From Candidatus Zambryskibacteria bacterium RIFOXYD1_FULL_40_13 (GTDB lineage Bacteria > Patescibacteriota > Minisyncoccia > Phycocordibacterales > DATDWN01), in assembly GCA_001824295.1 (NCBI GenBank), contig MHWY01000001.1:5034-69033 (forward strand): 64,000 nucleotides of DNA, in the 5' to 3' direction. The position numbers and the translations under genes were made by a program. Below, one piece after another: positions 3,043 to 64,000 of this stretch (the stretch's first letter is position 1; every line of letters begins with the position of its first letter). A model generated the notes under the pieces. The model saw only the letters and a program-made list of their open reading frames with translations. It was not told the DNA's origin and made no database searches.

Positions 3043-3160
3043 GACCCCTTTTTACAAAAAAAGCAATGGCCACACCTGTTCAGTTTGACTTCCTTAATAT
3101 TTTTTGCTTTAATAGTGCTGTCAATCGCCGGCTATGGCCGGTTTTTAGATAGAGATATCA

Positions 3161-3331
3161 CTTAATCACATCTTTTTGGAGCGCGCATAAATTTCTGGTG
3201 AAATTTTGCTCTCTCTCGGCTTCCTTACAGGAACAGTACACCTTTCACATTTAGTAAAATGTTCAAGGTCTTGCGAAATGATAATATCATTTCTCACCCG
3301 CCTGCGAAGTCTCCAAAAAGATGTGATTAAG
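3161..3331 (+). repeat. palindromic structured element family 1, copy 1 (in typA leader)
   Basis: perfect 21-bp inverted repeat cttaatcacatctttttggag / ctccaaaaagatgtgattaag closing a core gcgcgcataaatttctggtgaaattttgctctctctcggct ... cctgcgaagtctc shared with copies at 8658 and 43895. Confidence 0.6.
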
Positions 3332-3349: not shown

Positions 3350-5161
3350 ATGGAAATACGAAACATAGCCATCATAGCCCATGTAGACCACGGCAAAACC
3401 ATGCTCACTGACGCCCTTATGCGTCAGACTGGCATGGTCACAACCGAAGGCGCCACTATGGATTCAAACGCTCTGGAACAGGAGCGTGGTATTACTATAT
3501 ATGCCAAGAATACATCTATTTACTATCCACCAAAGGAATCAGGGCGAGAGGTTACAAAGATAAATATTGTTGATACTCCGGGGCACTCCGACTTTGGTTC
3601 AGAGGTTGAGAGAGTCCTAAGGTCCATAGACACCGTCCTTCTCCTCGTTGACGCGCAGGAAGGACCAATGCCACAAACCAGATTTGTTTTGAAAAAATCC
3701 CTAGAACTTGGACTGAAGCCGATTGTAATCATCAACAAGATAGACAAGCCAGCCAGTAGGCCAGAGGAGGTCCATGAATTGGTTTTGGAACTATTTCTTG
3801 AACTTGGAGCAAACGACGAGCAACTAGACTTCACAACAGTCTACGCTATCGGACGAGAAGGTATTGCAAAGATGAACCTTGCTGATGAAAACAAGGACTT
3901 AACTCCCCTTCTTGAAACAATATTAAAAGAAGTTCCTCCTGCGTCCGGAGACAAAACATTGCCTGCCAGGCTTCAATCATTTAATCTTGCATACGATAAT
4001 TTTCTTGGAAGATTAGCTGTCTGTAGAGTATATGAAGGTACAATAAAAAACGGGGATGTTGTGTTTGTTAAGCAACATCACAACACATCAAATACTGGAG
4101 ACCAGAGTAAGGTTGTCTCGGGCAAACTAACAAAACTTTTCAGCTTTGAGGGAACAAAGAGATTGGAAATAACAGAAGCTTCTGCTGGAGATATTGTCAT
4201 GATTGCCGGACTTCCAACTGTGTACATTGGAGACACAATTTGTAAAGACGAGAATGCTGATATGCTTCCATCTATCAATATTGATGAACCAACAATTTCT
4301 CTTAACTTTTTGGTTAACGACTCCCCTTTTGCTGGGCGTGAAGGAAAATATGTTACAGGACGACAAATCAGAGAGAGGTTGGAGAAAGAACTGGAAATGA
4401 ATGTGGGCCTCAAAATTGACTGGAACGACGGTGCACAGGTTGAGGGATATACCGTATACGGTCGTGGCGAACTGCATATCGCCATTCTTTTGGAGAACAT
4501 GAGAAGAGAGGGATATGAACTCCAAGTGTCACAACCAAAAGTTATAATCAAGGAAAAAGATGGGGTAATGCTAGAACCTTTTGAGGAAGTGACCGTAGAT
4601 ATCTCCGACGAACTAGCCAGCTCCGTTATCTCACGACTAACAGAAAGGAGAGGAATCCTGATGAACGTTAGACAAACTCATGGACACCAGAGACTTATAT
4701 TTGAAATTCCAACAAGAGGACTTCTTGGTTATCGTGGACAATTCATTGTAGACACAAAAGGTCTCGGTATATTGTCTTCAAGATTTGTTGAATTTCGCGA
4801 ACATGTTGGAGAAATAAAACGCACAACTTATGGCTCTATGGTCTCCATGGAGTCCGGCAAGGTTCTAGCTTTTGCCTTGGACAACTTACAACAAAGAGGA
4901 ACTCTATATGTTGACCCTGGAACAGAGGTATATGTCGGAATGGTTATTGGAAACGTCTCAAAAGGAGCTGATTTGTCAGTAAACCCCACAAAAGGTAAAC
5001 AACTGACAAACATGAGATCAACAAGTTCCGATGGTTCTATATACCTTGCCGCCACATACAAACTTGATATAGAAAAAGCCATGGAAATAATGGCTGAAGA
5101 TGAATACATAGAAATTACTCCAAAGTCAGTCAGACTTCGAAAGAAAACAGTAAGAAAATAA
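3350..5161 (+). CDS. typA: translational GTPase TypA/BipA
   Basis: IRNIAIIAHVDHGKTMLTDAL G1 motif, DTPGHSDF, NKIDK; full-length EF-G-like domain order; start chosen at ATG 3350 just after the repeat (ORF track start 3206 lies inside the repeat). Confidence 0.9.
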   Translation: MEIRNIAIIAHVDHGKTMLTDALMRQTGMVTTEGATMDSNALEQERGITIYAKNTSIYYPPKESGREVTKINIVDTPGHSDFGSEVERVLRSIDTVLLLVDAQEGPMPQTRFVLKKSLELGLKPIVIINKIDKPASRPEEVHELVLELFLELGANDEQLDFTTVYAIGREGIAKMNLADENKDLTPLLETILKEVPPASGDKTLPARLQSFNLAYDNFLGRLAVCRVYEGTIKNGDVVFVKQHHNTSNTGDQSKVVSGKLTKLFSFEGTKRLEITEASAGDIVMIAGLPTVYIGDTICKDENADMLPSINIDEPTISLNFLVNDSPFAGREGKYVTGRQIRERLEKELEMNVGLKIDWNDGAQVEGYTVYGRGELHIAILLENMRREGYELQVSQPKVIIKEKDGVMLEPFEEVTVDISDELASSVISRLTERRGILMNVRQTHGHQRLIFEIPTRGLLGYRGQFIVDTKGLGILSSRFVEFREHVGEIKRTTYGSMVSMESGKVLAFALDNLQQRGTLYVDPGTEVYVGMVIGNVSKGADLSVNPTKGKQLTNMRSTSSDGSIYLAATYKLDIEKAMEIMAEDEYIEITPKSVRLRKKTVRK

Positions 5162-6514: not shown

Positions 6515-7801
6515 ATGAAGAATATTTCAAAATTAAGCACTGAGAGCTACAAAGGGGTTAGGGATTTCTACCCCGAGGATTTGTTTATTCAAAACTATAT
6601 TTTTGACACTTGGAGAAAGACAGTTGAGAAGTTTGGCTATGTGGAATACAGCGCATCTGTCCTAGAACCTGCTGAGCTTTATAAAGCAAAGACGGGTGAA
6701 GAGATAGTCAATGAGCAAACATACACCTTTACAGACCGCGGAGAGAGACAAGTCACTCTAAGGCCAGAAATGACCCCGACTGTTGCCCGCCTGGTTGCCC
6801 AGAAACAACACGAACTTACTTTCCCCCTAAGATGGTATTCAATTCCTAATCTTTTTCGTTACGAGAAACCACAGAGAGGACGCCTACGTGAACACTGGCA
6901 ACTCAATGTAGATTTCTTTGGCATTGATTCTATTAATGCAGATATAGAAATCATCACTGTGGCGGAGCGAATAATGAAAAGCTTTGGTGCAAAAGACGGT
7001 GATTTTGTAATAAAGATAAACGACAGGAGAATAATGTCATCTCTATATGAAAAATTTCATTTAGACAATGAAGCATCATATAAAGTTTCAAAGATAATAG
7101 ATAAAAAAAATAAAATCACAGCTGAAAGCTTTGGGTCGGCTTTGGCAGAAATAATCGGAGAGAAAGCAAAGGAGTTTGTGACCCTGCTTGAATCCAGCGA
7201 GAAACTGTTTGACTATTTCGGTGAGGAAAACAAACATGTGAAAGAGTTGGTCAGCTTGATAGAAGAACTACAAAAAAGTGGTATTGCAAACGTAGAGTTT
7301 GACCCAACACTTATGCGTGGATTTGACTATTACACCGGTACGGTGTTTGAGGTGTTTGATAACCACCCAGATAACAACCGCTCAGTTTTTGGTGGTGGTA
7401 GATATGACGATTTGCTAGATATATTTGGTGCAGAAAAAGTTCCAACCATTGGTTTTGGTGCGGGCGATGTCACAATGAGAGACTTCCTTGAGACCCACGG
7501 CTTACTCCCAGAATACAGACAAAACATCAATCTCTATATCTGCTCAACAAAACCTGAATACATTGATGAGTCTCAGAAACTAGCAAACACACTAAGAGAG
7601 AACGGCCTAAACGTTGCGGTAGACTTGAGTGGCAAAAAACTTGGAGACCAGATGAAGATTGCCAATAAACAAGGTATACCTTATGTAATCTGTGTTGGTG
7701 AGGATGAAATAAAATCTGGTTTGTATGGAGTAAAGAACATGGACAGCGGTGAGGAAGAGAAAGTGAAGATAGAAGAAATTGCCGATATTGTTAAAAAATA
7801 G
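6515..7801 (+). CDS. hisS: histidyl-tRNA synthetase
   Basis: class II aaRS motifs, GVRDFYPEDL, FRYEKPQRGRLREHWQ motif 2, C-terminal anticodon-binding domain. Confidence 0.9.
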   Translation: MKNISKLSTESYKGVRDFYPEDLFIQNYIFDTWRKTVEKFGYVEYSASVLEPAELYKAKTGEEIVNEQTYTFTDRGERQVTLRPEMTPTVARLVAQKQHELTFPLRWYSIPNLFRYEKPQRGRLREHWQLNVDFFGIDSINADIEIITVAERIMKSFGAKDGDFVIKINDRRIMSSLYEKFHLDNEASYKVSKIIDKKNKITAESFGSALAEIIGEKAKEFVTLLESSEKLFDYFGEENKHVKELVSLIEELQKSGIANVEFDPTLMRGFDYYTGTVFEVFDNHPDNNRSVFGGGRYDDLLDIFGAEKVPTIGFGAGDVTMRDFLETHGLLPEYRQNINLYICSTKPEYIDESQKLANTLRENGLNVAVDLSGKKLGDQMKIANKQGIPYVICVGEDEIKSGLYGVKNMDSGEEEKVKIEEIADIVKK

Positions 7802-7834
7802 TTACGAATTTTAAATAATATTTTAGACACGCAT

Positions 7835-7852
7835 AAACCCCTGTTGGGGTTT
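7835..7852 (+). terminator. intrinsic terminator after hisS
   Basis: aaacccc tgtt ggggttt followed by T-rich tract. Confidence 0.45.
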
Positions 7853-8043
7853 TGCTATTCTCGTCAATCAAGAAAACAATCTTCCTCAGTGCTGGCCCTT
7901 TCGCAAACTTCTCGTCGATTACGACTTCGTCAAACAGTGCTTCGGGCTGGCGCACTTCGTCGTTGTTTTCTAATTGACTGCGAAATGTCTAAAATATCAC
8001 TTAAAATTTTGCGATTGGTTGGGTTCACTGGTATACTGGCTTT

Positions 8044-8657: not shown

Positions 8658-8762
8658 GAATCTCTCACATATATTTTTTGAGCGCGCATAAATTTCTGGT
8701 GAAATTTTGCTCTCTCTCGGCTACCCACCTGCGAAGTCTCAAAAAACATATGTGAGAGATTC
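8658..8762 (+). repeat. palindromic structured element family 1, copy 2
   Basis: 25-bp inverted repeat gaatctctcacatatattttttgag / ctcaaaaaacatatgtgagagattc (1 mismatch) closing the same conserved core as copy 1. Confidence 0.6.
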
Positions 8763-8864
8763 ATTTACTTAAATCAGACAGTTTTTAGATAAAAAAAGAG
8801 GCTGTGGGGACCCCGCCGTCCCCACTCCTCCACCACTTGTCGCGATCACCCGCTGCTTGGCAGG

Positions 8865-8948
8865 TTACCGCCGACGCGCCCTTCCTTCTTCGAGATTCGC
8901 CACTTCGCGCTTCTTGTGTTTCTTCACCGCCGCACCGTTGAGTCTCAT
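8865..8948 (-). CDS. possible 27-aa basic peptide in GC-rich mini-island 3 (MRLNGAAVKKHKKREVANLEEGRARRR)
   Basis: AGGAG SD 7 nt before ATG; followed on minus strand by ggggac..gtcccc hairpin plus T-run at 8801-8830; alternative 67-aa frame 8785..8988 lacks SD and reads through the hairpin. Confidence 0.3.
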   Translation of the reverse strand: MRLNGAAVKKHKKREVANLEEGRARRR

Positions 8949-9051
8949 GGCACACTCCTGTGAAGGACTGGTCAACTCGTGACCACATCCTCTATAAGCA
9001 TAGCATATGCCCATTTGTCGTCAACAATAATTATCCACCAACGCCTACTAG

Positions 9052-10746: not shown

Positions 10747-10876
10747 TAAGCGGATAAATTCAACAAAATAACCCTATTTCTAGGGTTATTTTGTTGAACA
10801 AAGAAGGTTATTTTCAAACTGAATAAAACCGCTTATATCTGGACTATATTTGGCCACAACTGAAAATATAGATTAA

Positions 10877-27070: not shown

Positions 27071-27109
27071 CCCGCCAGGACACCTCGTCTTGGCGGTTTC
27101 GCTTTTTTT
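27071..27109 (+). terminator. intrinsic terminator copy 1 (cccgccagg acacctcgtc ttggcgg tttcgcttttttt)
   Basis: GC-rich stem, T-run; near-identical copy at 27424. Confidence 0.55.
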
Positions 27110-27423: not shown

Positions 27424-27457
27424 CCCCCGCCAGGACACCTCGCCCTGGCGGTTTCGC
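27424..27457 (+). terminator. intrinsic terminator copy 2 (cccccgccagg acacctcgcc ctggcgg tttcgc)
   Basis: same stem-loop as 27071 with two substitutions. Confidence 0.45.
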
Positions 27458-37447: not shown

Positions 37448-37698
37448 CCCCCAAGCAAGTCGTCTGCGTGACGGCAAGCTTTGGGGGTTTTCGTATGTAA
37501 AAATCTTACTGACCAAAAAACATGTTAGCTCTGAGGATTTTTGTTCGAGTTTGAAATGAGTGATTTATTAAAAGACGCTAAACTTCCAAATCTAGATGAA
37601 ATCCGACGTGAGAAATTAAAAAGGCGAAGAGCCTTACTTGTCGTAAGGTGATGAGCATTTTTAATTTGGGAACGAGGAGTTCGCCAGATTTGGAAGTT

Positions 37699-43412: not shown

Positions 43413-43558
43413 CCCATCATTTTATCATATACGAAAACCCGGTAGTGAATTTTAGCATTAGACTTTGTCCGCTCTGAAAGAGCAATGCTAAAATCTACTA
43501 CCGGGAGAAGAGCCGTCGGCGTGCACCTGGCACGCGGACAGCCCTTTAGAAAACAGCA

Positions 43559-43795: not shown

Positions 43796-43894
43796 GTCCA
43801 CTGCCCTCCCTATCCCCAAAATACCACCAAATCACCTCTATATCAACCCCCCCTCTCCACCACACTGATGACATGCTATAATACAGTCACAAAA

Positions 43895-44017
43895 AATAAT
43901 CTCGATGAGTAATATCTTGAGAAGAGACTAGTGAGCGCGACGGCGCGAACTCAAGCAAAATTTCAGCAGAAATTTATGCGTGTCTCTTCGAGAGATATTA
44001 CGAGTAAGAGATTATTT
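43895..44017 (-). repeat. palindromic structured element family 1, copy 3 (inverted, immediately upstream of dnaE)
   Basis: core gcaaaatttcagcagaaatttatgcg is the reverse complement of the conserved hairpin in copies 1-2; flanked by an imperfect about 34-nt inverted repeat. Confidence 0.5.
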
Positions 44018-44027
44018 TCCAAAAAAC

Positions 44028-49537: not shown

Positions 49538-49648
49538 CAGATTTGGATGACTTCCGCATAGAACTTTCAAATTTGAGACAAGGTCGCGTATAAAATAAAA
49601 AGTATTTCCGGAGGTGTACATGTGGTACATTGACGGAAATACTTTTTA
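49538..49648. repeat. intergenic repeat family 2, copy C
   Basis: shares two sequence blocks with 9921-10000; contains hairpin aaaagtatttccg ... cggaaatactttt. Confidence 0.35.
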
Positions 49649-49680
49649 TTTTAGACGATGAGATTGGCCAAATTTGGAAG

Positions 49681-52451: not shown

Positions 52452-52714
52452 ATAATTTAATTATACACAATACACTGGTTTGACAAGACCCGATAAATAA
52501 AATACAGTTCATAGTATGAATCCGCAAAAACCGATCGCTTCGAAAAACATTGGTGCAGTTCACTTTTTTTGGACTCTGTTTCCAGAGCCTATTTTTGCGT
52601 TTATGAAATAACTATCTAACACATCATAAACATAAAAATGGACTCTGGAAACGGAGTCCATTTTTTGTTACCACAGTTCTTTCACATCAACCAACAACAA
52701 ACAAGGAGACCACA

Positions 52715-60788: not shown

Positions 60789-62960
60789 ATGAAATTCGGC
60801 GAATCACAATTTAATGCTCTGAATACAGAAAATCCTAACAAAAATGAAGGGTTGAAAAACCCTGAGCCTCTAGATAATACTGACCCAATAGCCGAAGACG
60901 AGGATTCAATGTCATATTTAGGAGTTACACTAGAAAAAGCAAAATCTGGACACGATCAATTTGTACCAAAAAGGGAGCAGTATGGAGATTTCATAAATGA
61001 TAAAGAAGTGGCATTACCACTTCAAAGGGATGTGGCGGTTGCCTTCATGAGTGGAGAACCACTTCTCGTAGACGGAGGCACTTCTCTTGGTAAAACTACT
61101 ACAATTAGGAAAATGGCAAGCGAGCTCGGTTGGGAGGTCCACTATGCAAACTTAAATGGTGCGACGGATGTGGAAGATCTCATGGGTAGATATATCCCTA
61201 ATCCTCACAAGAATAAACCTGAAGATCCGGAATATATTTTTGCGGATGGAAAAGTAACCAGTGGTTTGAGACAAGAAGAAGGTAAGGTTAAGGTTATTAT
61301 ATTGGATGAATTTAACGCTTCGGCTCCAAACATTCTCATTCGCCTCCATGAAGTGCTGGACTCTCTAGAAAGAGGTGGAGACGTTATATTATCGGAAGAT
61401 GCTTCGGAAGCGGTGGCAGTAAACAAAGGAGTGACTAAAATCGTTGCACTGATGAACCCTCCAGGTAAAGGATACTTTGGACGAGAACCATTAGACCCTG
61501 CTCAACTTCGTAGATGGGTATATAAAAAACTTCCGTCTGAATTACCTGCAAATACATTCTCTTATGCAACAGACTCTCTTTTTGGATTGGCTAGTGAACA
61601 ACAGAACATAACTCCTGATATGTTCTTGCGAGCCAGAGGGGAAGGTTTAACACATGAACAACTACAAGATATTCCTGGTCTTCCTGAGGTCTTGGAGAAA
61701 TACAAAGAGTTCCATAAGGCCTCAAAAGAACTGTTAAAAAACAGAAAGATTGCTGAAGATCAACCACAACCTTTTACTTATGATGATCGTATGGAACCTC
61801 GCAGAGTCAGAGATTTTATTTTGAGATTTTATAATGGAGATCTCAATGAGACCATGCAACAAGCTCTCCGTTATTACTATGCAAATAAACTAGAAAGTGA
61901 CGCTGATAGAAAAAAGCTTGGCGAGCTCATACGATTAGTTGAATATAAAGCAAAACCTGGAGAGTCGAAAAGGAAAGGTTTGGAAGTGGGAGTCTCTAAA
62001 GAAAAAGCTGGTCTAATAAATGATATAGAAAAACTAAAAGCTGAAGTTGAAGCAAGTGGAAAATTGCCAAAAACAGAGTCTAAGGATTCACCAGATACTC
62101 TGTTAAAGAAAATGGAGTTAGCCAAAGAAATGCTCGGTAAGGATTTCATGGGCCCAGAAAAAATTGAGAAAGCTTTTGGTATTAAATTAGCCACAGAAGA
62201 TATTCCAGATATGCCGTATTCAATTGAGGATCTTGAGCGAGCCAAAGAAAACGGAGAAATGCTTGTGTTAGGGGTAGACAAAGATTCAAGCGGTAAGCTT
62301 CTTACCATAGCTCATATGCTTGAAATGATTCCTGAACTAAAGGATCCGACCACAGGAGAAAAGATTAAAGTTTTATATGGTCAAGAAAAACCTGGTTCTA
62401 AATTGGCTGATGATTGTTGGTATAGAAATGAGCCATTTTATACAGGTGTTAATAAAGATGGTACCATTATCCCAGATGCCCATCCTCGTCTCAGATGGAG
62501 ATTAACATCAAAAGCCCCCCTTCCTGAATCAATAGCCACTTCTTATGGCGGTACCGCTGAAAAATCTACTAACTATGTTGAACAAACAAAGATTTTAAGA
62601 GAATATCTTACGTCTGTAGGGTCTCTCTCTGAAGATGAGGCGAAAGAATCTTCCGATAAAGTTCTTACAGAAATATCAAAACTCATGGAGTCTGACTGGA
62701 AAGAAGCGGCTAAAAGACTTTCTGAACTTACAATAAACAAAAATCACAGAAGACTTCCTCCAGAAGTTATTTACGATATATTGCTTTCCATAAAAGGAAA
62801 TGACGAGCGAATTATGGAACAAGTATATGATTGGACAGCGGCCCTTTCGTCTGGTGGCGAGCTGGTGTCTGTCGGCGGCGCTTACCGTGGCGGTGTGGGC
62901 GTCAGCGCCGACGGGCCCGACGGTCGCGATGGCCCTCTTGGTGTCGTTTCTCTCCGCTAG
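60789..62960 (+). CDS. AAA_5 (MoxR/CbbQ-like) ATPase with long uncharacterised C-terminal region
   Basis: Walker A DGGTSLGKTTT, Walker B VIILDEFN, sensor region; C-terminal about 300 aa paralogous to next ORF; GC-rich 3-prime tail. Confidence 0.7.
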   Translation: MKFGESQFNALNTENPNKNEGLKNPEPLDNTDPIAEDEDSMSYLGVTLEKAKSGHDQFVPKREQYGDFINDKEVALPLQRDVAVAFMSGEPLLVDGGTSLGKTTTIRKMASELGWEVHYANLNGATDVEDLMGRYIPNPHKNKPEDPEYIFADGKVTSGLRQEEGKVKVIILDEFNASAPNILIRLHEVLDSLERGGDVILSEDASEAVAVNKGVTKIVALMNPPGKGYFGREPLDPAQLRRWVYKKLPSELPANTFSYATDSLFGLASEQQNITPDMFLRARGEGLTHEQLQDIPGLPEVLEKYKEFHKASKELLKNRKIAEDQPQPFTYDDRMEPRRVRDFILRFYNGDLNETMQQALRYYYANKLESDADRKKLGELIRLVEYKAKPGESKRKGLEVGVSKEKAGLINDIEKLKAEVEASGKLPKTESKDSPDTLLKKMELAKEMLGKDFMGPEKIEKAFGIKLATEDIPDMPYSIEDLERAKENGEMLVLGVDKDSSGKLLTIAHMLEMIPELKDPTTGEKIKVLYGQEKPGSKLADDCWYRNEPFYTGVNKDGTIIPDAHPRLRWRLTSKAPLPESIATSYGGTAEKSTNYVEQTKILREYLTSVGSLSEDEAKESSDKVLTEISKLMESDWKEAAKRLSELTINKNHRRLPPEVIYDILLSIKGNDERIMEQVYDWTAALSSGGELVSVGGAYRGGVGVSADGPDGRDGPLGVVSLR

Positions 62961-63057: not shown

Positions 63058-64000
63058 ATGGAAGGTATACCTACAACTCCAAGTAAAGAAAAAAGTCTTG
63101 AAAAAGATGAGTTTTCAGGTTCCAAGACTCTCGAAGAAATAGCTAGAATACAAAAAGGTCGAGACCTCAGCGCTTTGAGTGTGAAGGAACTCTCTTCTAT
63201 AAGAGAAAAGTACATCAGATTGAAACAAGAGTTAAATATTGGTGGAAAGGAAGTGAAAGAAGGAATGGAAACTTCCTATGAGCAAGCTCAAGAGATTATG
63301 GGAGAAAGTTTTTATGGGACAGAAGAAATAAAGAACACTTTTGGATTTGAATTTCCGAAAGAAAAAATACCCCATGTTCCGTATACTCCCGAAGTGCTTG
63401 AAAAAGCAAAGGAAAATGGAGAGATGTTGGTGTTACGTGTAGAAAGCGATGGATCGGGCTCTTCTATAACCATGCAAAGAATGAATGAAATCATGCAGAC
63501 CATTCTGGAGAAGGATAGTGAGGAAGAACAGGAAAAGTTGCTTTATGATACTAATTGGTATCACGAGGAAGATTTCTTTAAAAATGCTTCCTTAAAGACT
63601 GAGTGGAGAATAGTCGGCAAAGAATTCATACCAGACTCAACGAGTAAGAATTATATAGAACAGACTAAGATATTACGAGACTATCTCTTTGGTTTAGAGT
63701 CACTCTCTGAAGAAGAGAAATCAGAATGTACCGATGAGCTACTTGAAGGACTTCAAAAAATGCTTGATGACGATTATGATAAAAATTGGCAAGAGGTTGC
63801 CAAGAAACTTTCAGAGCTTTTGGTTAATAAAAATCACAGACGAATTCCAGCAGAAATATTATATGATTGGGTTTTACAGTTTAGAAATAGAAAAGATCGA
63901 GGTATTTTGGAAGAAAATTATGACTGGTCAAACACCCTTTCGTCTGATGGCGGGCTGGTGTATGTCGGCTACGCTGACCGTGGCGGTGTGGACGTCGGCG
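63058..64000 (+). CDS. paralog of the C-terminal module of the AAA_5 protein (partial, runs off window)
   Basis: shared blocks AKENGEMLVL, YIEQTKILRDYL, NKNHRRIPAEI and near-identical GC-rich 3-prime tail; ORF open to window end. Confidence 0.5.
   Translation, partial: MEGIPTTPSKEKSLEKDEFSGSKTLEEIARIQKGRDLSALSVKELSSIREKYIRLKQELNIGGKEVKEGMETSYEQAQEIMGESFYGTEEIKNTFGFEFPKEKIPHVPYTPEVLEKAKENGEMLVLRVESDGSGSSITMQRMNEIMQTILEKDSEEEQEKLLYDTNWYHEEDFFKNASLKTEWRIVGKEFIPDSTSKNYIEQTKILRDYLFGLESLSEEEKSECTDELLEGLQKMLDDDYDKNWQEVAKKLSELLVNKNHRRIPAEILYDWVLQFRNRKDRGILEENYDWSNTLSSDGGLVYVGYADRGGVDVG

Follow-up and report, generated by a model that had tools for sequence, protein, structure and literature searches.

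The ERIC sequences (IRU) of Enterobacteriaceae and Vibrio are imperfect palindromes of ~100-200 bp that lie in transcribed intergenic regions in either orientation; they encode no protein, have a conserved central inverted repeat and come in size variants produced by internal insertions at fixed positions. The genomes of Patescibacteria (the candidate phyla radiation, CPR), of ~1 Mb, are thought to be poor in mobile elements and in known non-coding RNAs. We analysed a 64,000-nucleotide stretch of such a genome, that of Candidatus Zambryskibacteria bacterium RIFOXYD1_FULL_40_13 (contig MHWY01000001.1, positions 5,034 to 69,033; hereafter the window), and describe in it four copies of a small (~90-250 bp) non-coding foldback repeat, the occurrences of which are almost all in Patescibacteria. 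Each copy consists of a conserved branched core closed by long arms that differ between copies and are self-complementary within a copy. On balance, and with modest confidence, we read it as a non-autonomous mobile or duplicative repeat (comparable to a MITE, a miniature transposable element with inverted repeats, or to ERIC or REPIN), whose arms would be templated at the DNA level and whose core would be under selection.

The CPR repeat is like ERIC in size, intergenic setting, occurrence in either orientation, conserved centre, insertion variants and absence of an encoded protein. It differs in its host phylum, shows no sequence relation, has as its centre a branched three-way junction with a bulge, and has arms that are far more variable between copies than those of ERIC, yet nearly perfect within a copy. 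REPs are 20-40-nt GC-rich palindromes with a GTAG or CGTC end tag (PMC3733652). The REP/REPIN systems (RAYT, a Y1 HUH enzyme) share with the CPR repeat a non-autonomous, hairpin-forming unit located just outside genes in tens to hundreds of copies, and their recognition as folded single strands is a further likeness; the stems of the CPR repeat are, however, long and AT-rich, its core is branched, CGTC occurs only as the loop of one small hairpin (P3b, below), and no RAYT gene was seen in the 8-kb slices examined around the loci. The Correia (CREE/NEMIS) elements of Neisseria and the RUP and BOX repeats of pneumococcus, classical bacterial MITEs, are likewise small intergenic foldbacks, co-transcribed, capable of forming long RNA hairpins and variable in presence between strains, but they have conserved terminal inverted repeats and target-site duplications (TA for Correia), whereas in the CPR repeat the centre is conserved and no such duplication is visible. 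What is unusual relative to ERIC, Correia and REPIN is that the conserved part is a central branched structure, that the arms are variable but self-perfecting, and that the family spreads across CPR classes. Within the databases and literature searched, it is apparently undescribed: Rfam 15 gave no match at gathering threshold in the whole window and, in E-value mode, only generic long-hairpin microRNA models far below threshold; plasmid and phage collections held no match to the family, viral contigs gave two chance matches only, and a literature search returned no description of it.

Three of the window copies had been reported from a sequence-only reading of this DNA and are real: copy 1 (3161-3331, plus strand, 171 nt; E 3.2e-15; fold -62.2 kcal/mol, z -8.8), copy 2 (8658-8762, plus strand, a minimal element of 105 nt; E 4.2e-22; fold z -6.95) and copy 3 (43891-44020, minus strand; E 1.3e-23; fold z -6.2). 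Their 25-nt core GCATAAATTTCTGSTGAAATTTTGC, found at 3185 (+), 8686 (+) and 43955 (-), occurred in none of 100 shuffles, and copy 3 is indeed inverted. That reading missed a fourth copy (7807-8008, plus strand, 202 nt; E 1.3e-13), which surfaced through a looser pattern and a list of inverted repeats. A covariance model recognises exactly these four, all with E <= 1e-13, the next match having an E of 0.23. All four follow a common fold plan, in which a stem, P1, closes a three-way junction with two helices, P2 and P3. P1 is an AT-rich inverted repeat of 20-55 bp, often bracketed by an A-run and a T-run, and one or two unpaired bases separate it from P2, a hairpin of 10 bp (GCA-U-AAANNNN/NNNNUUU-UGC) in which the bulged U is invariant, the upper 4 bp are free to vary and the loop reads UGNU. 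A single U leads on to P3, built of a helix of 2-4 bp (P3a), the strings CUCG and (Y)UGCG, both conserved, and a terminal part. This tip is either P3b, a GC stem of 4 bp with the loop C(A)GUC or UACCC, or a conserved optional module, of which there are two, spanning ~75-130 nt: the ~130-nt type A arm (copy 4) and the 74-nt type B insert (copy 1). Folding z-scores of the window copies range from -6 to -9, and the two strands fold about equally well.

The closing inverted repeats described earlier were confirmed, with 21 of 21 positions paired in copy 1 (3161-3181 to 3311-3331), 24 of 25 in copy 2 (8658-8682 to 8738-8762), and in copy 3 an imperfect, interrupted longer stem with an outer-arm motif (CTCTTACTCGTAAT / ATTACTCATCGAG). 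Such copy-specific perfect stems had been taken as evidence of a selected RNA or DNA secondary structure, but the comparison of copies does not support them as evidence of selection for an RNA fold. In the metagenome-assembled genome (MAG) JBCLGW01, three copies (loci L056, L060 and L072) have identical 50-nt cores and arms paired at 29/29, 43/44 and 55/55 positions. Their arms differ at 14, 14 and 7 of the 30 positions nearest the core, and all 35 differences are compensated, with no uncompensated one, which favours DNA templating; L060 and L072 have 35 nt of arm in common. In the Saccharibacteria MAG CAZFHL01, several dispersed copies have a whole ~150-nt unit in common, with sharp ends, and in one of them (L045) the 3' arm has been overwritten to match the 5' arm as its exact complement, with loss of the internal loop that the rest of its family has. 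The same rewritten-arm pattern is seen when window copy 2 is compared with L090. Overwriting went from the 5' arm onto the 3' arm in three cases and in the other direction in none, too few cases to establish a direction. Fast-diverging, perfect arms beside an unchanged core suggest that one arm has repeatedly served as the template for the other, and the perfect copy-specific stems would be better explained by such a DNA-level process than by stepwise compensatory selection. The P2 bulge and the junction persist although templating would erase them, which argues that they are under selection.

The stems are not completely different between copies, as had been claimed, since copies 1 and 2 have their inner ~13 nt in common (CACATcTTTTTGG vs CATATaTTTTTTG), an inner stem that recurs in copies of other genomes (L090, L002, L120). 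In addition, ~16% of the copies, from several CPR classes, have, at a fixed 28-30 nt from the core, a motif in the outer arm (5' CTCTTTCTCG, 3' TCAACGAG), the two strands of which form an internal loop. The contrast that had been drawn with the conserved terminal repeats of MITEs was therefore overstated, as whole arms are common to copies within one genome and one subfamily has a conserved outer-arm motif; in the window, copies 1 and 2 share no more than the inner ~13 nt, and the arms of identical-core copies differ at 7-14 of 30 positions. A second foldback family, here called core B (...CCAGTCCTC...GTCAAGA...ACCATGCT.GAGG...TGCGG; L126 ~6585-6760, L134 2307-2475), reuses the P1 chassis of part of the studied family (AAAATCTC-[TTTCTCA]...GGAGCA / AGTCTCC...[ATTCAAC]-GAGATTTT), and a search of Rfam with it gave no match.

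The core hairpins show heavy compensatory variation, in support of the structured repeat family that the sequence-only reading had proposed. In an alignment of 122 sequences, 97.9% of the structure cells are paired (74.2% in shuffles) and 365 are double-change cells (101 in shuffles), a signal that is lost once the partners are slid by 1-3 columns. The lower P2 stem covaries in divergent copies (GUA/UAC, ACA/UGU, GGA/UCC, GCG/CGC), and the bulged U is present in every sequence; the conservation of the P2 foot looks inflated, as most loci were chosen by the exact core pattern. In P3b, which played no part in the selection of sequences, GC, CG, AU and UA are all seen at each pair, and the complementarity of P3a (0.63, compared with 0.49 +/- 0.02 for permuted partners) exceeds that of all 500 permutations. 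Among the ~1540 core pairs, 1524 are Watson-Crick, 7 are G.U and 11 are A.C. A selected RNA helix normally tolerates G.U far better than A.C, and the parity of the two implies either that both strands must pair or that a DNA-templated process restores pairing. In P1, where the same comparison was used as a test of the transcribed strand, the counts are 99 G.U to 159 A.C on the strand of the element itself, a figure that the conserved internal loop probably biases, and 94 to 72 with respect to the transcript of the host. The family is a warning not to take Watson-Crick covariation, where a repeat is palindromic, as proof of a selected RNA structure.

The history of the sites was followed in Zambryskibacteria relatives gathered through the RNase H-like protein encoded between copies 4 and 2, to which the identities below refer; four independent assemblies of the window organism are identical over 7.7-9.1 kb and hence uninformative on presence or absence. 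No family copy occurs in ~12 kb of L125 and L134 (both 93%), L128 and L133 (both 87%) or L130 (83%). The position of copy 2 (site 2) is occupied by a type A copy in opposite orientation in L129 (91%), by a core B element in L126 (88%), by a copy of a divergent subfamily in L127 (83%, which has another copy elsewhere), by an unrelated foldback element in L128, and by a plain GC terminator in L133 and L130. A core B element also follows typA in L134, and the only member of the studied family in L126 is an ortholog of copy 4. The family is thus duplicative, and is gained and lost, because relatives lack copies 1, 2 and 4 or have other foldbacks, in either orientation, there, and because dispersed copies with identical cores occur in several genomes. 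The empty sites are free of hairpins for copy 1 (L125, L128, L130, L133) and for copy 4 (L128, L130, L133), so at these two sites the arms came along with the element. Between copy 4 and its ortholog in L126, the P1 arms are identical, and what differs is almost entirely made up of compensated pairs, which lie in P2, in P3a and in two type A hairpins. Upstream of typA, the element is absent in L125, L126, L127, L128, L130, L133 and L134, and in 80 metagenome typA neighbourhoods it lies near the gene start only in L135 (the strain of the window) and possibly in L168 (~430 nt upstream). The element is not a conserved leader or riboswitch of typA or dnaE, and at typA its position is not kept in relatives. 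In some of these relatives, HisRS has only 310-324 aa and no anticodon-binding domain and borders directly on the RNase H-like gene (L125 5068-6000, L127 5039-6013, L134 4248-5180); it has 426-429 aa in others, the window (6515-7801) among them.

Outside this lineage, a scan of species-representative genomes with the exact pattern CGCATAAANNNNTGNTNNNNTTTTGCT, for which ~17 chance matches are expected from the size of the collection, gave at least 120 loci. Nearly all belong to Patescibacteria, namely to Saccharibacteria, to lineages of Paceibacterota/Parcubacteria and to WWE3, and the few matches outside the CPR are chance ones without a complementary hairpin. Covariance model R1 found 122 copies in 736 kb, ~27 of them outside the exact pattern, and 6 copies in the 725 kb of the 80 typA neighbourhoods, an unbiased sample. 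The proposal of a structured repeat family is borne out by these many further copies, which run counter to the refuting condition set for it beforehand and the closing stems of which pair in nearly every case. The family is patchy in density, and the genome of the window, which has 4 copies in 64 kb, is rich in it. Two elements inverted relative to each other, 35-90 nt apart, occur in L016 (2461-2541(+)/2576-2656(-)), L015 (3603(+)/3728(-)), L083 (3543(+)/3710(-)) and L035 (6682(+)/6811(-)); in L015, each member follows its own convergent gene.

The relation to genes was drawn from crude, longest-ORF (open reading frame) calls; as these extend into the element, they give no reliable distance to a start codon. 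Where both flanking genes point the same way, the element is in sense orientation in 32 cases and in antisense orientation in 35, and a further 23 copies lie between convergent and 11 between divergent genes, so that orientation relative to the flanking genes is random. The neighbours are ordinary housekeeping genes, and no copy holds ORF-sized cargo, the distance from core to 3' arm being less than 300 nt at most. About three quarters of the sense copies begin within ~20 nt of the upstream stop codon; for antisense copies, the median distance to the upstream stop is ~106 nt. The canonical intrinsic terminator is a short, GC-rich stem-loop with a U-tract behind it. A consensus terminator scan called none of the four window copies, although it called ordinary GC-rich terminators elsewhere in the window, yet many P1 stems are bracketed by an A-run and a T-run. 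As copies closely follow stop codons or lie in leaders, and are transcribed together with the genes, one might speculate that they act as bidirectional terminators or RNA-processing hairpins.

If the element is a mobile foldback repeat, it would be moved by an enzyme acting in trans, the element itself encoding no protein and having no recurrent transposase gene nearby. One arm would repeatedly be re-templated on the other, through hairpin or quasi-palindrome template switching or through fold-back synthesis, and the arms would in consequence drift fast while staying perfectly complementary. The core, including its bulged base, would be held by purifying selection, and is probably recognised, as the pairing pattern suggests, as a folded single-stranded or cruciform structure by the mobiliser or by whatever uses it. 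Several points weigh against this reading. No target-site duplication is found at the six near-identical CAZFHL01 copies or at the window copies, and the 8-kb slices around the loci contain neither an autonomous relative nor, among 828 ORFs from 120 loci, a recurrent transposase-like neighbour. No pair of filled and empty sites was found that is close enough in sequence to give an exact junction, and no empty allele of copy 1 was found in metagenome contigs. The compensated differences between copy 4 and its ortholog, together with the conservation of the core across classes as distant as Saccharibacteria, Paceibacteria and WWE3, also fit a host function; the adjacency to stop codons, confined to sense copies, is something that a purely selfish, orientation-blind element does not predict; and the mechanism of arm templating is drawn from sequence patterns only.

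A second reading, tentative and in our view unlikely, would make the element a functional structured RNA, acting either in cis (as an element of the 3'-UTR, of termination, of processing or of stability) or as a stand-alone non-coding RNA or small ribozyme, with the junction as its active part and P1 as a closing helix. The sequence of the junction and P2 foot is strongly conserved across CPR classes, P2, P3a and P3b covary, folding z-scores are low (-6 to -9), hardly any difference between the copy 4 orthologs is uncompensated, sense copies start at the upstream gene's stop codon, and optional modules on a single arm are typical of ribozymes and large non-coding RNAs. The same pairs are nevertheless almost entirely Watson-Crick, with G.U no commoner than A.C (7 vs 11 among ~1540), both strands fold equally well and orientation is random with regard to the direction of transcription (32 to 35 between co-directional genes), none of which supports selection for an RNA fold. 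An RNA with a function of its own is also hard to reconcile with close relatives that have no copy at the corresponding sites, with a position that is not a conserved typA or dnaE leader, and with the absence of a conserved upstream promoter, for which the abutment of P1 on stop codons leaves no place. Rfam gave no match, its models including those of the known self-cleaving ribozymes (hammerhead, twister, twister-sister, pistol, hatchet, HDV-like). The hammerhead was considered by itself and rejected: the core CUGANGA is not found, the loop being a variable CUGGUGA or CUGCUGA, and the would-be A6 is G or C.

A bolder form of the mobile-repeat reading, which we think rather unlikely, would make the three-way junction the recognition module of an undescribed, hairpin-directed CPR mobility system that transfers only one arm and the core and regenerates the second arm by fold-back synthesis at each move; such an element would be conserved at its centre, and its terminal repeats would be produced anew with every move. 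Alternatively, the core would be a new small catalytic or protein-binding RNA spread by such an element.

In a variant of the mobile-repeat reading, which we find very doubtful as a general rule, the core cassette alone is mobile (P2, P3 and ~11-15 bp of inner stem) and enters at the apex of a hairpin already in place, for instance a terminator or a tRNA T-arm, with the outer stems belonging to the host. This would account for outer arms that are unique to each copy beside identical cores, for the terminator positions that copies occupy, for 5' arms that overlap the last codons and stop of the upstream gene (L018, L064, L042), and for the presence of long core-less hairpins at gene ends in the window; a subclass of the form GGTCA-core-CGACC is placed exactly on the dyad of a palindrome that resembles a T-arm (GGGATTCG[...]CGAATCCC), beside tRNA genes. 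The hairpin-free empty sites of copies 1 and 4 are difficult to explain in this way, as are the whole arms common to the dispersed CAZFHL01 copies, the 35 nt shared by L060 and L072, and an outer-arm motif (CTCTTTCTCG / TCAACGAG) that keeps a fixed distance from the core in ~16% of copies and is found in the second core family as well. The intervening sequences (IVS) of 23S rRNA offer a likeness here, being extended stem-loops of ~100-150 nt that replace a hairpin tip and occur sporadically among close relatives; their place is within rRNA, from which RNase III removes them, whereas in the CPR repeat the tRNA-linked subclass alone sits in a hairpin tip. No copy was found inside rRNA in the 18 loci scanned, the sole 23S rRNA detected (L010) lying ~1.9 kb from the copy of that locus.

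Members of the tRNA-linked subclass (GGTCA-core-CGACCCCG) are found 10-110 nt downstream of tRNA genes, to which their orientation is convergent (L116 760-860 and ~1100-1210; L043, L102, L111, L065, L105). In L116, one occupies the centre of a T-arm-like palindrome in a duplicated 3' fragment of tRNA-Arg (GGGATTCG[...]CGAATCCCTCAAGGCGTACCA), and a second duplicated tRNA 3' end follows tRNA-Lys. A tRNA and tmRNA scan of the window itself found none. Long, AT-rich intergenic hairpins without the core also occur in the window at 52570-52660 (the arms of which are themselves hairpins), 49587-49657, 43438-43505, 37613-37667 and 10759-10798, the last a perfect 18-bp stem between convergent genes.

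It is highly improbable that the repeat is a folded single-strand DNA site of a known kind, that is, an integron attC site, an IS200/IS605 or REP-RAYT hairpin, or a dif-like Xer site. With attC it shares conservation of structure over sequence, arms complementary within a site but different between sites, a variable and sometimes branched terminal structure and an invariant extrahelical base in a hairpin, the latter also known from IS608 ends; pairing is Watson-Crick only, and YTCAAC in the 3' arm of some copies resembles the attC box RYYYAAC. That box is, however, on the wrong arm, within the internal loop and in a minority of copies, and in the copies and neighbourhoods examined we found no terminal R''/R' boxes (RYYYAAC ... 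GTTRRRY ends) and no cassette arrays, the copies being dispersed singly and in either orientation, and no adjacent intI or other integrase or transposase gene. P2 does not resemble P3b, whereas IS200/IS605-derived elements have similar subterminal hairpins at both ends; the ends carry neither a GTAG nor a CGTC tag, and orientation is random (32 to 35, gene direction serving as a proxy for replication), whereas IS200/IS605 show a strand bias. As to dif, GCGCATAA matches the XerC arm of E. coli dif, a likeness that was rejected as no equivalent of the XerD arm is present. Two further identities were discarded: a small reverse-strand ORF in the type A module, since its indels are not multiples of three and its variable parts are covarying hairpins, and a DNA-uptake sequence, for which the element is too long and too rare and a self-complementary variable centre is needless.

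A repeat reaching up to tens of copies per genome in Saccharibacteria, Paceibacteria and WWE3 would be a new marker and a source of genome plasticity, and would point to a trans-acting protein or to a host function, for example termination or insulation in very compact genomes. It would also be an instance from nature of palindrome arms that evolve in concert, which bears on how cells handle long DNA hairpins.

Within copy 1, the P2 hairpin (CGCATAAATTTCTGGTGAAATTTTGCT, with bulged T3188) occupies 3184-3210 on the plus strand, and the extra loop sequence noticed earlier is the 74-nt type B module (3222-3295), three small hairpins within the P3 loop, which is also present in L023, L031 and L112. 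The element lies immediately upstream of typA, as had been reported, within the 5' leader of this gene, the ATG of which, at 3350, is 18 nt past the end of the element. Upstream of it in the same leader (3085-3147) are a promoter-like TTGACT...TTTAAT, a GC hairpin (GCCGGCTATGGCCGG) and a T-run, an arrangement that resembles an attenuator and is kept in the element-free relatives L125, L128, L130 and L133. Copy 4 begins 6 nt past the HisRS stop and ends right before the -35 box (8009) of the promoter of the RNase H-like gene. Its core (CGCATAAACCCCTGTTGGGGTTTTGCT, 7830-7856, plus strand) has a hairpin top that is compensated relative to the other copies, both sides being changed, and its P3 arm (7857-7985, plus strand) is the type A module, with a AATCAAGAAAACAA ... 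TTGTTTTCTAATTG stem and inner hairpins, kept in ~20 other loci. Copy 2, 33 nt past the stop of the RNase H-like gene and not upstream of any gene, has its P2 hairpin at 8685-8711 and its junction and P3 (CTCT-CTCG-GCTACCCACC-TGCGAAG) at 8712-8737, both on the plus strand. Between this copy and bacA (-), 8800-9050 is unusually GC-rich and includes a canonical terminator on the minus strand (8825-8804); at the equivalent of this region, small minus-strand ORFs are called in relatives.

Copy 3, with its P2 hairpin (CGCATAAATTTCTGCTGAAATTTTGCT) at 43954-43980 on the minus strand, lies between an RNase HII gene (-) and dnaE (+), the ATG of which (44028) is 10 nt beyond the element; the position upstream of dnaE is again the one reported. 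It is positioned at the minimum of the cumulative GC skew (~43-46 kb), where gene orientation turns from mostly minus to mostly plus; an origin of replication (oriC) with a cluster of DnaA boxes at copy 3 was rejected, no cluster being found there. Elsewhere in the window, a 32-nt GC-rich, hairpin-forming repeat (CCCGCCAGGACACCTCG.C.TGGCGGTTTCGC) occurs twice, at 27071-27102 and 27426-27457, 355 nt apart, and two segments separated by ~1.09 kb, 62697-62907 and 63787-64000, have an identity of 70-76%, suggestive of paralogous genes in tandem at the edge of the window.

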